Origin: Candidatus Aenigmatarchaeota archaeon
GTDB lineage: Archaea > Aenigmatarchaeota > Aenigmatarchaeia > GW2011-AR5
Assembly (NCBI GenBank): GCA_016184005.1
Contig: JACPDL010000003.1
Coordinates: forward strand, 17,839 to 81,838
Direction of reading: 5' to 3'
DNA: 64,000 nt
This document shows positions 2,161 through 63,340 of the stretch, piece after piece; position 1 is the stretch's first letter, and each line of letters begins with the position of its first letter. The notes below the pieces were generated by a model. It did not search any database. It was not told the origin of the DNA and was given only the letters and a program-made list of their open reading frames with translations. Position numbers and translations under genes: made by a program.

Positions 2161-3399
2161 ATGTCCGAACACGATGAAAACGTAGCAGCACACGTAGAAG
2201 AAATTATAGAGTCAGCTTCTAAACCTACTTCTGAAGCTGCTGTAGAGCCTGTCATTGATGCAAATCCTGCTCCAGCTGCTGCTCCGTTGCAAGAACACAC
2301 AGTTGATCATATTATAGCATCTGCTTCGAAGCCTGTTGCGCCGCCGATTGCAAGAAGGGGCGTAAGCTTTGACAACGTCATTGATTTTGAAGCCCACAAG
2401 GCGCGGATCGCAATTTTTGGCTGCGGAGGCGCTGGGAATAATACCGTCACGGCACTGACTGAAAAGGGCATAGATGGCGCATCGACGGTTGCAATAAACA
2501 CGGACGCAAAGCACCTTTACGTGAGCAAAGCACACAAGAAAGTGCTCATAGGAAAGAACCTGACACAAGGATTGGGTGCAGGCGGTTATCCGGAGGTAGG
2601 CAAAAACGCAGCACTTGAGAGCAAAGGAGAGCTCAGGGAATTGCTCAAAGGCGTTGATCTTGTTTTCATCACATGCGGCCTTGGAGGCGGTACAGGAACG
2701 GGTGCAGCCCCTGTCGTTGCACGGATTGCACGCGAAACAGGCGCAATTGTCATAGCAGCCGTGACGCTTCCATTCAAGCTGGAAGGCGCAAGAATTATCA
2801 AGGCAGAAGAAGGCCTTGTCAATCTGCGGCAGGCTTGTGACACGGTCATAGTCATAGAAAACCAGAGACTTCTGGAAATTGCAAAGGACATGCCTCTTAA
2901 GAAAGCGTTTGCAGTCGCTGATGATCTCATAGCCACGATGATAAAGGGCATATCAGAGACAATATCCCAGCCGTCCTTGGTAAACCTGGATTACGCAGAC
3001 GTAAAGGCGATAATGCATTCAAGCGGAGGGGTTGCTTCCATAGGTTTCGGAGAAAGCGATGGCGAAGACAGGGCATTTGAATGCATAAACAAGGCACTGA
3101 ACCATCCGCTGCTTGATGTCGATTACAACGGAGCGACAGGCGCACTTGTACAGGTTATCGGCGGCAACGACATGAGGCTGGATGAAATCAACCGCATAGG
3201 CGAAGTCGTGCAGGAACACCTCTCGCATGATGCGCAAGTAATCTGGGGCGCCCGTGTCCTGCCAGAACTACAGGGCAAGATCCAGGTCATAACCATAATT
3301 ACAGGCGTTAAATCACCATACATCCTTGGCCCTTTGTCCAGGGACGAGAAATCAAAAGTCAAGAAATCCCGGGAGCTCGGGATCGAGATAATAAAATAA
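2161..3399 (+). CDS. ftsZ: Cell division protein FtsZ
   Basis: GCGGAGNN, GLGGGTGTG tubulin signature, NLDYADV; acidic Pro/Ala-rich N-terminal extension. Confidence 0.97.
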   Translation: MSEHDENVAAHVEEIIESASKPTSEAAVEPVIDANPAPAAAPLQEHTVDHIIASASKPVAPPIARRGVSFDNVIDFEAHKARIAIFGCGGAGNNTVTALTEKGIDGASTVAINTDAKHLYVSKAHKKVLIGKNLTQGLGAGGYPEVGKNAALESKGELRELLKGVDLVFITCGLGGGTGTGAAPVVARIARETGAIVIAAVTLPFKLEGARIIKAEEGLVNLRQACDTVIVIENQRLLEIAKDMPLKKAFAVADDLIATMIKGISETISQPSLVNLDYADVKAIMHSSGGVASIGFGESDGEDRAFECINKALNHPLLDVDYNGATGALVQVIGGNDMRLDEINRIGEVVQEHLSHDAQVIWGARVLPELQGKIQVITIITGVKSPYILGPLSRDEKSKVKKSRELGIEIIK

Positions 3400-3516
3400 G
3401 CCCCTTTTCGCGGAGTGTATGACGCACTAAAGTGCGTCTAATCATTCGAAAAGGCCCTTGGGTTCAAAAGAAACTCCAAGGATCCTAATATATGAGAAAC
3501 AGGTGTTTTCTCACCA

Positions 3517-3616
3517 TTAGGAGAGAAGGTTGATACGTGCAAAGAGCAAAGCTCTTTGACGCGTCAGAGAACTTTCAGTTCTCTGCACGAGGAAGAGAAC
3601 CTAGGTTCTCGACTTA
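3517..3616 (+). repeat. Repeat family A, filled allele carrying a 54-nt twin-hairpin insert at 3536-3589
   Basis: Flanks join to the exact reverse complement of 28412-28456 and 52285-52330. Confidence 0.9.
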
Positions 3617-3739
3617 TGCTGACCACACCCCAAAGATAGGCAGTTGGTTTGACTGAAAAGCGCGAAAGCGTGATTTAGGCCTTGCCAACTGCCTACTCTT
3701 TCTTTTTTACAAAACTAGCGGAAGCTATGTCAAGAACTT

Positions 3740-3862
3740 TAAATGATATGCTCTTGATACTCCCACGACTAAAGTCGTGGGTTTCTGAGAGCATGTCATC
3801 CCAACATTGTTTATGTAATATCTGCTGTCTGAAGACAGCAGTTTTAAGCAATGTTGTGGATA
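3740..3862 (-). repeat. Repeat family B copy 1 (IS200/IS605-end-like hairpin cccacgactaaagtcgtggg) with a 30-nt hairpin insert at 3819-3848
   Basis: Aligns with 63197-63340 and 9562-9740 in reverse orientation. Confidence 0.85.
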
Positions 3863-3870
3863 AAGTTTTC

Positions 3871-9477: not shown

Positions 9478-9561
9478 TTTTACCAAGTTAACTTATGTTT
9501 CCCTGTTTTAATAGATAGTATGCGCCATCAACAGACATCATTTAAATGAAAGGATAATAAT

Positions 9562-9740
9562 TATCCTCAGAGACATTGAAAACTGCTGTCTTTTCTGCAA
9601 AGGACTTTTAAGAAGTCCTTTGCAGAAATCCAGGAGAGCTTCGCTCTCCATGAATTAGACAGCAGATGAAACACAATGTCTCTGGGATCACATCTTCTCA
9701 CAAACCACCGACTTTAGTCGGTGGTATATTAAGAAGATAT
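9562..9740 (+). repeat. Repeat family B copy 3 with nested twin-hairpin insert at ~9593-9655
   Basis: acattg..ctgctgtct/agacagcag..caatgt stem and ccaccgactttagtcggtgg end hairpin, covarying with B1. Confidence 0.8.
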
Positions 9741-9812
9741 GATCATGGCACAAGCACAGTTATGACCACACATAAACAGTCAGAAATTTTGCGTACGCCA
9801 GTAAAGATTGGC

Positions 9813-10775
9813 CTACATTGCCGTATCTTCGGTTTCTTCAAGATATTTGATTATAAGACTTACCATAGGTTTTATATCGCCCTTATTTCCTTCTTCCAGC
9901 GCCTCATAGTACTTGCTTCTTTCCCTATATTTGATATTAACCATAGGCAGGCCGTTTTTTCTTAGTATGAAGTTAAGCAATAGCCTGCCGACGCGTCCGT
10001 TGCCGTCGCGGAATGGGTGTACAGACTCAAAGATGTGATGAAAGTAGGCAGCCACGACAACAGGATGGTATTTCTTCTTGTTTGACCTGTACCAGAGCAT
10101 CATATGCTTGAATTGCTTTTCTACTTCTTCGGGCTTCGGCGGCATGAAACCAGCGCCTCTTACATAGACCTGCACATCCCTGAACCTGCCGGCATATTTC
10201 CAGAGTATGTTGTGCATGAGCAATTTGTGCAGCTTTAGGACAAAATTTTTGTTTATATCACCTTTGTGAATCAGCATACAGTCAAAAGCGTCCTTATGGT
10301 TCTGAACCTCATTTATCTCGCGTACACTTCTTCCTTCCGGAACGATCTTGTCGAATAGTATCAGAGCTGTTTCCTGCAGCGTTACTGTAGACCCTTCTAT
10401 AGCGTTTGTGTCATAGGTAAATTCAGTAACAAAACTCTCATAGTAATTTCTATATACGTCTTTGCTGAGTTTAGACTTGTTTTTTTGATAAAATTTCTTG
10501 ATTCCGCTTATTTTCTTCTGATGATCTGCAGAAATCAGATTAAAAAGCGGATCTGATGATTTCCTCGATTTATCAGCTTTTTTCACCAATTCAGATTTTT
10601 TGTATCTAATAAGACGTTTCAGATCTCTACTATTTAGGTCTTTCCCAATGTAAATCCGAATCTTTTCCCACCCGCCACGCGATCTGACGTTCTTCGAACG
10701 TCCATTTCTCCTGCGTATATTCTCAACTATGTAAAAATAAGTGCCGCTTTTCTTTTTCTGCCTCTCCACATACAT
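9813..10775 (-). CDS. Fic family protein
   Basis: HPFRDGNGRVGR Fic motif; TNAIEG inhibitory motif. Confidence 0.95.
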   Translation of the reverse strand: MYVERQKKKSGTYFYIVENIRRRNGRSKNVRSRGGWEKIRIYIGKDLNSRDLKRLIRYKKSELVKKADKSRKSSDPLFNLISADHQKKISGIKKFYQKNKSKLSKDVYRNYYESFVTEFTYDTNAIEGSTVTLQETALILFDKIVPEGRSVREINEVQNHKDAFDCMLIHKGDINKNFVLKLHKLLMHNILWKYAGRFRDVQVYVRGAGFMPPKPEEVEKQFKHMMLWYRSNKKKYHPVVVAAYFHHIFESVHPFRDGNGRVGRLLLNFILRKNGLPMVNIKYRERSKYYEALEEGNKGDIKPMVSLIIKYLEETEDTAM

Positions 10776-10781
10776 GCTGTC

Positions 10782-10828
10782 TTTATGGGCACATATAAAT
10801 AAAAAGCTTATTCAGGTGTGCCCATAAA
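10782..10828 (-). promoter_or_regulatory. Fic promoter: TATA-like tract flanked by a perfect 12-bp inverted repeat
   Basis: tttatgggcaca (10782-10793) / tgtgcccataaa (10817-10828) around tttatttata on the minus strand. Confidence 0.55.
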
Positions 10829-10934
10829 TAAAACCGCTGCTATTGCTGGATTGCACAGATGGTGAACTTAACCATTCGCCCCAGTCAACAGTCAGTGGTT
10901 TTTCACATAAGCTAAACGAAAGGGGCGCTGAGAT

Positions 10935-11744
10935 TCACTTTGTGAACAGCTCGACGATATCCCTTTCATGCAGCCTGTATCTGAGGCCGGCTTTTATTTC
11001 CCTTGTCCTGTCGCTTTGCTTTCGCAATATTCGTGCAAAGCGGAAGTTCTTGAGAAAATCCTTGTGTATGCGCGCCGCGAAATCCCGCACAGTCGAGTTT
11101 TTCTTGAGTGCCATGGGGAAGATCTTTCCTGTTTCACGTTTTTTCGTGTAGACAAGCATGAGTTCCAGCGATTCCCATATCTTTTCCTTGACCTGCTCTA
11201 TGCGTTCAAGCCTGGGGTTTATAAAAATATACTTCGTGCGCAGGAAATTCCTGTCCATCAGCTCTTCCAGTTTTTTAATATCCTCGCCTTTTGATACAAG
11301 CACCACCAGGTCACAGCTTCTTGCAATGCTCAGGTGCTCCGGCTCGAATGTTGACGGTATTTCTACTATCTGTATCTTTACGCCTTCGTAGTCCATCATG
11401 CCGACTTCGGGCTTTGTTGTTGTAAACGGCGTTTCTGATATCTTTGGCCTGGCATGCGTGAGCTTTGAAAGCAGCCAGGATTTGCCGGATTTAGTGTACC
11501 CTATCAGGCAGACTTGCGCCTCGCCTTCCTTGGCTATGCTGGTTTTTGTCCCGCCCCTCTTTTTCGTCTCTTTTTTCAGCTTTGCAAGCTTTGAGCGAAG
11601 CTGCGCGTGTGCATTCTCGCTGCCGTGATGCCTTGGCAGAAGCCTTATCATTTCCTCAAGGGCAGCTATCTTCTCTTCCTTGCTTTTTGCGGATCGGAAG
11701 CGGTCTTCGGCCTTGAAGTATTCAACAGGCGCATTCACGGGCAT
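10935..11744 (-). CDS. DRG/OBG-family GTP-binding protein with TGS domain (short form)
   Basis: GYTKSGKS, PFTT, IHKDF..NFRFARI TGS. Confidence 0.85.
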   Translation of the reverse strand: MPVNAPVEYFKAEDRFRSAKSKEEKIAALEEMIRLLPRHHGSENAHAQLRSKLAKLKKETKKRGGTKTSIAKEGEAQVCLIGYTKSGKSWLLSKLTHARPKISETPFTTTKPEVGMMDYEGVKIQIVEIPSTFEPEHLSIARSCDLVVLVSKGEDIKKLEELMDRNFLRTKYIFINPRLERIEQVKEKIWESLELMLVYTKKRETGKIFPMALKKNSTVRDFAARIHKDFLKNFRFARILRKQSDRTREIKAGLRYRLHERDIVELFTK

Positions 11745-63151: not shown

Positions 63152-63196
63152 TTTATATATTCATCCTGAGCCTTAAACTTAAAGTTTTTCTCCTAC

Positions 63197-63340
63197 TATC
63201 CGCAACATTGTTACATAAACAATGTTGGGATGACACCTTGCAGAACAAAGTTCTGCGAGGTCTCGAAGAGCTTTGCTCTTCGAGGATGCTCTCAGAATCC
63301 CACGATTGAAGTCGCGGGAGTATTAAGAGCATATCATTTA
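63197..63340 (+). repeat. Repeat family B copy 2 with a 51-nt twin-hairpin insert at 63236-63286
   Basis: Reverse complement of 3740-3862 apart from different inserts and a few substitutions. Confidence 0.88.

Follow-up and report, generated by a model that had tools for sequence, protein, structure and literature searches.

A 64,000-nt stretch of a Candidatus Aenigmatarchaeota archaeon genome (assembly GCA_016184005.1, contig JACPDL010000003.1, positions 17,839 to 81,838 of the forward strand; hereafter, the window) was found to contain three copies, termed B1, B2, and B3, of a short, hairpin-rich repeat. The family to which they belong, family B, is mobile, has precise boundaries, inserts at a specific target, and does so without duplicating that target. 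It is very probably a non-autonomous element resembling the palindrome-associated transposable elements (PATEs) of the IS200/IS605 group, without a gene of its own and moved by the transposase TnpA; both the enzyme and a single-stranded intermediate are points that we infer. The element is of a known kind, but it occurs in a lineage for which no published account was located: a search of literature listings for such elements in Aenigmatarchaeota or DPANN archaea yielded no description.

Distribution and anatomy of family B

The original prediction, made from the letters of the window without database searches, had described B1, B2, and B3 as copies of a common frame with different content in each, and all three were recovered at the places that it had given (Table 1). 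The three sequences were used as blastn queries against the 919-kb, five-contig genome, and 37 loci were obtained at E <= 1e-3. About ten copies are 95-97% identical to B1 and about ten are of the B3 type; four loci represent a third type with different stems and hairpins, and the remainder are further variants, solo halves, and fragments. B1, B3, and B2 are the only family B loci in the window. Searches of 61 genomes, including this one, located the family in 19 (i.e. in 18 of 60 relatives); it was present in 15 of the 36 other genomes of the same taxonomic family and in a few of the same order. The elements range from 116 to 402 nt in length, which is too short for a transposase gene.

The cargo-free core is ca. 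117 nt long when read from the preceding TTAT to the terminal AT, and it is built of two modules, in each of which an outer stem encloses an 8-bp hairpin whose loop is usually TTTA. The outer stem of module I in B1 is formed by CCACAACATTG with CAATGTTGGG, has one bulged base, and encloses AAAA and the left hairpin (hp1). That of module II is formed by GACATGCTCT with AGAGCATATC and encloses GAAA and the right hairpin (hp2). Hp1 begins 18 nt from the 5' end of B1, and hp2 finishes 19 nt from its 3' end. In none of B1, B2, and B3 are the 12 nt at one end the reverse complement of the 12 nt at the other, i.e. there are no terminal inverted repeats (TIRs); in the folds of all three, the pairing is internal, each end being joined to the centre of the element. 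The z-scores of the single-stranded DNA folds relative to shuffled sequences were -7.6 for B1, -9.1 for the opposite strand of B1, -10.0 for B2, and -14.7 for B3.

For the analysis of covariation, an alignment was made of 37 copies without cargo, 19 of them from this genome and 18 from eight relatives. Hp1, the outer stem of module II, and hp2 were 93.7% paired over these copies, and 17 of the 28 pairs showed changes on both sides, a number reached by none of 500 shuffles. When the partners were slid by 1-3 columns as a control, only 28-46% remained paired. The covariation of the end hairpins that had been noticed at the outset is thus upheld. The outer stem of module I was left unscored because MAFFT failed to align it between the subfamilies. 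The module II outer stem has a conserved C-A mismatch (alignment columns 77:129; in B1, GACATG contributes the C and CATATC the A); this position was unpaired in 26 of the 37 copies, and it would be a G-T wobble on the opposite strand.

The content does differ among the copies in the window. The inner left hairpin is missing from B2, which has a 51-nt unit; it is present in B1, and B3 has it along with an additional 63 nt in its loop. The 30-nt hairpin in the stem of B1 had been regarded as cargo; however, it proved to be the standard left subterminal hairpin together with its AAAA guide, a feature of 18 cargo-free copies here and of all 18 copies parsed in the relatives.

Mobility, boundaries, and target

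Empty sites were sought in G001, a sister genome of the same genus that is 94-98% identical in syntenic regions. Nearly the whole genome was compared, and the flanks of every copy were mapped. Fifteen sites could be aligned, of which four were exactly empty, five were near-exact, and six were unreadable. At the exact sites (C2:29091, C4:93273, C4:119629, and C5:50658), the left flank, ending in TTAT, is joined straight to the right flank in G001. The near-exact sites (C4:109100, C4:134727, C4:156701, C4:309354, and that of B2 at C4:81023) have 1-2 substitutions beside the joint. Among four additional sites, one more was near-exact (C5:60648, occupied here by a cargo-bearing copy), and the other three had unrelated or unalignable sequence. 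Six sites were examined in the reverse direction: a 235-nt, cargo-laden copy of G001 (L059) occupies a site that is exactly empty in the present genome, and the empty counterpart of a second G001 copy reads TCAT instead of TTAT. Contigs assembled from four DNA runs provided no empty allele of B1 or B3; the joints found inside B3 come from other repeat copies.

The boundaries of B1, B3, and B2 were refined from these empty sites of the family. The element starts at CC and ends in T-C/G-AT, and its joints have only a 2-nt ambiguity (AT) and no target duplication. Of 30 left ends, 28 are preceded by TTAT, one (B2) by CTAT, and one by TCAT, compared to a background frequency of 0.63% per position for TTAT. 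All 18 parsed copies from the relatives follow T-N-AT, which the parser demanded, and 17 of them follow TTAT itself. Outside the element, sequence is conserved on one side only: TT precedes the AT at the left, and no fixed letters follow at the right. A conserved 4-5-nt target, which had been named as a check on the original prediction, therefore exists as TTAT with a sharp boundary. The frame beginning with TATCC that the prediction had considered common to the copies is indeed shared, but the TTAT within it is the target in the flank and lies outside the element.

Three sites are more complicated. In the G001 ortholog of C5:60648 (L048, ca. 2160-2320), there is no B copy; a different, hairpin-rich element of ca. 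110 nt with four small hairpins is present 10 nt further on. C4:362986-363173 and its G001 counterpart (L088, 7114-7309) are identical up to TTAT, after which there is a B copy here and ca. 190 nt of unrelated sequence in G001; the latter also ends in TTAT before the shared right flank, and the difference may be a rearrangement between two TTAT sites. Finally, in relative G016 (L111), a B copy directly follows the ...GATGTGAT end of another; this tandem equals a right-end/left-end junction, with TGAT, not TTAT, as its target.

Pairing of guides and cleavage sites

In IS608, as described in the cited portions of PMC3201880 and PMC5934647, the cleavage sites are read by the four nt located 5' of each hairpin: the first guide base is matched to the second base of the site and the second guide base to the first, and the third site base (A) stays unpaired. 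From the IS608 combinations TTAC/AAAG and TCAA/GAAT, we infer that guide base 4 would pair with site base 4. Family B fits the same scheme at both ends. At the left end, the guide AAAA is matched to the target TTAT. At the right end, the cleavage site (C_R) is the final four nt of the element, and the guide/site combinations are GAAA/TCAT in the B1 type, CAAA/TGAT in the B3 type and the third type, and, as a third state found in relatives, AAAA/TTAT.

Right modules were collected as 96 rows, 46 of which were kept because the left stem was located upstream and not downstream of them; those dropped had it in the reverse orientation only (28), on both sides (19), or on neither (3). In 45 of the 46 oriented modules, from ten genomes, guide base 1 was complementary to C_R base 2, with three states (G:C, C:G, and A:T). 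The counts were 27 for GAAA/TCAT, 15 for CAAA/TGAT, one for CAGA/TGAT, and two for AAAA/TTAT, with TAAA/TGAT as the single exception. When identical haplotypes were counted once, 18 of 19 fitted the rule, a score that none of 10000 permutations reached. The 22 ambiguous rows among those dropped were divided between 13 that fitted and nine that did not; seven of the nine then read CCCA, the opposite-strand reading of a copy. In the 37-copy alignment, the guide/site pair was intact in every copy (22 GC, 14 CG, and one AU), compared to 0-62% for controls in which the partners were slid.

The left end provides the cleaner argument for guide pairing, because the TT of TTAT is flanking sequence, which no internal stem explains. 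In relative G014, the left guide of one copy (L143, with a boundary from the parser alone) is GAAA and is preceded by TCAT, not TTAT; the left end, too, would then show compensation between guide and target. At the right end, the base of the outer stem, the guide base, and the cleavage-site base vary together, and this three-way covariation could conceivably mark a conformational switch between a "closed" fold and a "transposase-ready" one, although this is doubtful.

A resident IS200-type element

Pfam Y1_Tnp matched the genome at only three places, each time with a C-terminal fragment of 33-35 residues at the end of a contig. Of the ten contig ends, six proved to be the two ends of one IS200-type insertion sequence (IS), three copies of each (Table 1); evidently, this multi-copy element broke the assembly. 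The interior of the IS, with most of tnpA, is absent from the assembly. The right end reads GAATT-CCACCGTA-TTTA-TACGGTGG-TCAATTTAAA, and the left end reads TTTAAAAACGAATT-CCACCTGTCTTCAGACGGTGG, the second part being the left hairpin. The site of one IS copy is empty in G001. Complete relatives of the IS with the same hairpin type were found in two other genomes, and the 130-aa TnpA of one relative matches the TnpA proteins of ISDra2 (E = 3e-22) and IS608 (E = 1e-6). If the IS were cut one base inside the shared TTTAAA, it would also fit the guide scheme (TTAA with AATT), with a 6-7-nt ambiguity at the joint.

A likeness of the family B hairpins to the ends of IS200/IS605 elements had been proposed in the original prediction, and it was borne out by the resident IS: hp2 of B3 (CCACCGAC-TTTA-GTCGGTGG) and the right hairpin of the IS (CCACCGTA-TTTA-TACGGTGG) are identical at 16 of 20 positions and differ at four. 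The 93.9%-complete genome contained no match to the TnpB, DDE_3, DDE_Tnp_1, or rve families. An omega-RNA-like role for B elements is not suggested.

Nested hairpin units

The 63-nt, twin-hairpin unit of B3 belongs to a family with 13 loci in this genome, each bracketed by two hairpin arms. Ten loci are in hp1 or hp2 of B copies, and three are in other hairpins or fragments. The units have a single orientation relative to the host hairpin and are found at T/TT^TA of the TTTA loop. The cargo-laden copies C4:315520 and C5:60648 are at different loci and are identical except for 2 nt. Cargo-laden copies are strain-specific insertions with clean TTAT joints; thus, an element seems to take its cargo along when it moves. 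In B2, the 51-nt unit is inserted in the outer stem of module II, on its 5' arm; the copy C3:29719-30124 has the same unit at this place, and an analogous unit is found there in another genus (L120 and L122).

The nested units are 51-63 nt long, and no inverted repeats are visible by eye at the ends of the 63-nt unit. The IS608 scheme was also tried on these units by eye and was rejected: no reading of the joints gave a T-N-A-N target with a matching guide. The units could conceivably, although this is doubtful, be a second level of mobile DNA whose specific landing places are the 4-nt loops of the transposase-binding hairpins of the PATE/IS200 system; they would be parasites of a parasite, which the SMR-A elements of Haloquadratum also appear to be. 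If they are real insertions, they would represent an undescribed, structure-directed integration at hairpin loops, perhaps a side reaction of a hairpin-bound Y1 transposase.

Proposed mechanism and alternative explanations

In the mechanism proposed for family B, a Y1 (HUH) TnpA supplied in trans would excise and insert the element in single-stranded DNA; the likely source of the enzyme is the resident, multi-copy IS200-type element. Hp1 and hp2 would be the transposase-binding subterminal palindromes, and the four nt 5' of each would act as DNA guides, AAAA for TTAT on the left and GAAA, CAAA, or AAAA for TCAT, TGAT, or TTAT, respectively, on the right. Guide pairing would direct integration to the position 3' of TTAT, and the two outer stems would gather both cleavage sites at the centre of the fold. 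The content between the ends would travel along, including hairpin units in the loops of hp1 and hp2 or in an outer stem. The boundary motif, the IS-like hairpin, and the IS608-type guide pairing all support the original idea of PATE-like elements that carry smaller units.

Several observations weigh against transposition by TnpA. The same C_R base also has a pairing partner in the 5' arm of the outer stem, and in all 37 aligned copies this partner and guide base 1 are the same base. The covariation is therefore confounded, and guide pairing is inseparable from stem pairing plus linkage in natural copies. Also, about two independent switches suffice to produce the three guide states. The signals of the IS differ from those of family B: the IS has GAATT before both hairpins, a TTTAAA end, and a bulged left hairpin, whereas the B hairpins are perfect. 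Of the 61 genomes, seven had matches to both B and Y1_Tnp, 12 to B only, 12 to TnpA only, and 30 to neither, which is no co-occurrence beyond chance; G005, a genome in two contigs, had 11 B matches and no TnpA match. In the present genome, TnpA is known from the contig-end fragments alone, the IS interior being unassembled; because the gene survives even here only in this form, metagenome-assembled genomes (MAGs) under-report TnpA. Hp1 is missing from B2, and still the corresponding site in G001 is empty, an argument for hp1 being either dispensable or a later loss. Copies whose hp1 loop contains a 63-nt unit are strain-specific insertions too, so hp1 either tolerates a large loop or is not required. 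Lastly, the site of B1 itself has no clean empty allele; 22 unrelated letters are found there in G001 and in the contigs of three other runs.

Some of these points would be equally at home with a mobile family B that is moved by another agent, either an unrecognised enzyme or hairpin-driven replication slippage or template switching, with the IS608 fit as a by-product of the stems. Such an agent would not need to co-occur with Y1_Tnp, linkage of the outer-stem base to the guide could by itself mimic the covariation, B2 still looks like a strain-specific insertion despite its missing hairpin, and the nested units clearly move without guide logic. However, the invariant TT that the AAAA guide predicts is left unexplained by any internal stem, duplications and inverted ends are lacking, the B hairpins match those of the resident IS200-type element, and no other transposase family was found among the five tested. 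This explanation was accordingly judged to be improbable. A function as structured non-coding RNA genes, or as RNA signals at the 3' ends of transcripts (terminators or stabilisers), would account for the strong fold and its compensatory changes as features of an RNA. It would also suit the location of the copies, which sit in spacers (11 of 30 between convergent open reading frames (ORFs)) and often 1-20 nt from the end of a gene. But the copies have both orientations relative to the neighbouring ORFs, both strands fold equally well, copies are present or absent with precise TTAT joints between near-identical genomes, and no Rfam family reached threshold; an RNA function is thus very unlikely. 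(In the window, Rfam gave no match at gathering scores, and only two sub-threshold, chance-level matches were near B1.)

[quoted passage not shown] The 2-nt ambiguity at the joints (TTAT before the element and xxAT at its end) can indeed be read as a duplicated AT. This class was rejected, since the termini are not inverted repeats of each other, the outside conservation is confined to the TT on the left, there is no duplication, and DDE_3, DDE_Tnp_1, and rve had no match in the genome. Movement by TnpA therefore remains the preferred explanation. It supplies a testable mechanism for one hairpin-rich repeat family of very small DPANN genomes, namely a DNA-guided, single-strand "peel and paste" with TTAT as the target.

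Other features of the window and genome

The coordinates of the three copies and their parts are collected in Table 1.

Table 1. Family B features in the window and ends of the resident IS200-type element (positions are those of the window unless a contig is named)
Feature	Position	Strand	Remarks
B1 element proper	3743..3859	-	117 nt; cargo-free core of the B1-type subfamily; two hairpin-in-stem modules; boundaries from the empty sites of the family
B1 target TTAT, left cleavage site (C_L)	3860..3863	-	directly 5' of B1, in the flank and outside the element
B1 left guide (G_L) AAAA	3842..3845	-	4 nt 5' of the left hairpin; AAAA in 18/18 parsed copies; pairs with TTAT by the IS608 scheme
B1 left subterminal hairpin hp1, CTGCTGTC-TTCA-GACAGCAG	3822..3841	-	20 nt; proposed IP_L; helix 98.6% paired, 6/8 pairs changed on both sides
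B1 right guide (G_R) GAAA	3782..3785	-	base 1 complementary to C_R base 2 in 45/46 modules and 37/37 aligned copies
B1 right subterminal hairpin hp2, CCCACGAC-TTTA-GTCGTGGG	3762..3781	-	proposed IP_R; helix 99.0% paired, 4/8 pairs changed on both sides
B1 right cleavage site (C_R) TCAT	3743..3746	-	final 4 nt of the element
B3 target TTAT	9561..9564	+	5' of B3
B3 element proper	9565..9743	+	179 nt; B3-type core plus nested unit
B3 left hairpin hp1	9583..9665	+	arms 9583-9590 and 9658-9665; 67-nt loop (9591-9657) is TTTA plus the 63-nt twin-hairpin unit
B3 right guide CAAA and hp2, CCACCGAC-TTTA-GTCGGTGG	9701..9724	+	guide 9701-9704, hp2 9705-9724; 16/20 positions identical to the right-end hairpin of the resident IS200-type element
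B3 right cleavage site (C_R) TGAT	9740..9743	+	end of the element
B2 element	63200..63337	+	138 nt; decayed B1 type; no hp1; guide GAAT; site empty in the sister genome
CTAT preceding B2	63196..63199	+	in place of TTAT
B2 hp2	63299..63318	+	decayed, with mismatches
51-nt twin-hairpin unit in B2	63236..63286	+	inserted in the 5' arm of the outer right stem
Ends of the resident IS200-type element	C1, C3, C5 starts; C2 start; C3 and C4 ends		identical over 140 nt

The neighbouring genes, in a genome that is archaeal, include TrmB, DUF1512, and FtsZ. Just upstream of B1 is a 220-nt, hairpin-rich insert (3399-3618), in place of which G001 has 18 other letters; this insert is likewise absent from the contigs of three other runs. 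Its final 100 nt (3517-3617) constitute a repeat in their own right, of which G001 and G002 contain many copies. B3 is part of a 1.4-kb segment (9524-10935) that also contains a gene with a Fic/DOC domain (9813-10775, minus strand); the syntenic G001 contig lacks this segment and has ca. 20 nt instead. A tRNA scan of the window found none, and the GC skew of the three largest contigs was flat, such that no origin could be placed from it.

The whole genome contains 133 perfect 8-bp hairpins with 4-nt loops, compared to 13 in a shuffled genome, and 56 of the 133 have TTTA or TAAA loops. The arm types CCACTGTT, CCACCGTC, and CCACCACA are found outside family B and may belong to other families of this sort. 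Copies of family B and of the IS200-type element break assemblies and create false ORFs in MAGs; knowledge of their boundaries should aid annotation.

Comparison with known systems

Bacteria, too, have short, palindromic, high-copy spacer repeats, the REP, BIME, or REPIN sequences, whose presumed mover is RAYT (TnpA-REP), a Y1 HUH enzyme with kinship to IS200 TnpA (cited portion of PMC8266576). Family B differs from them in having two unlike ends and a defined target, and the Y1 gene here is in a multi-copy IS (at least three copies) with ends of its own, not a single domesticated gene flanked by repeats. Assignment to the REP/RAYT system was rejected because the Y1 fragments belong to at least three identical IS copies at six contig ends, where there are no B copies.

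The resemblance to IS608 of Helicobacter pylori and ISDra2 of Deinococcus is closer. These elements insert 3' of a fixed tetranucleotide that is kept in the left flank, and their 4-nt guides are located 5' of the hairpin foot (cited portions of PMC3201880 and PMC5934647); TTAC/AAAG and TCAA/GAAT in IS608 may be compared to TTAT/AAAA and TCAT/GAAA in family B. The TnpA of a relative is homologous to both of their transposases. Unlike these elements, family B has neither tnpA nor tnpB, its hairpins are ca. 18-19 nt from the cleavage site at both ends, and its stems are perfect 8-bp helices that lack the bulge of the imperfect palindromes. It also has three natural guide/cleavage variants within one family. 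These matched variants would amount to a natural retargeting experiment, in parallel to the engineered retargeting of IS608.

For the nested units, the closest match is SMR-A of Haloquadratum, a small, gene-less element found inside the near-terminal palindromes of PATEs and IS605-type elements (PMC3119063, in the portion cited). Both insert without target duplication, and the mechanism by which SMR-A is mobilised is given as unknown in that portion of the source. SMR-A is ca. 110 bp long, as opposed to 51-63 nt, and has prominent inverted terminal repeats, whereas none were visible by eye in the 63-nt unit. In addition, the 63-nt units are located exactly in the hairpin loop, at 13 of 13 loci and in one orientation. 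Inserts in hairpin loops thus have a parallel in haloarchaea, and the ca. 0.9-Mb genome offers a compact system for the movement of loop-targeting units.

The PATEs of Haloquadratum walsbyi and other haloarchaea are the nearest relatives in kind. As defined in the cited portion of PMC3119063, they have no inverted ends, have palindromes near their termini, cause no target duplication, and are too short for a transposase; the same portion describes palindromes like those of the IS200/IS605-type elements of the same genomes, a short targeting oligonucleotide at the 5' end, and strain-specific insertions. Family B is like them in all of these respects. It differs in its host lineage (DPANN, with a genome of ca. 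0.9 Mb), in its partner IS (of the IS200 type, with tnpA only and no TnpB match), and in the enclosure of each subterminal hairpin within a long outer stem that also pairs with the cleavage sites. It also has no sequence homology to the IS core, i.e. it is not an obvious deletion derivative. At the level of sequence, family B shows every feature by which PATEs are defined, along with the target and guide features of IS608. To this picture, the present analysis adds a series of empty sites, the ends of the resident IS, a guide/cleavage scheme with three variants, and the loop-specific placement of nested units.

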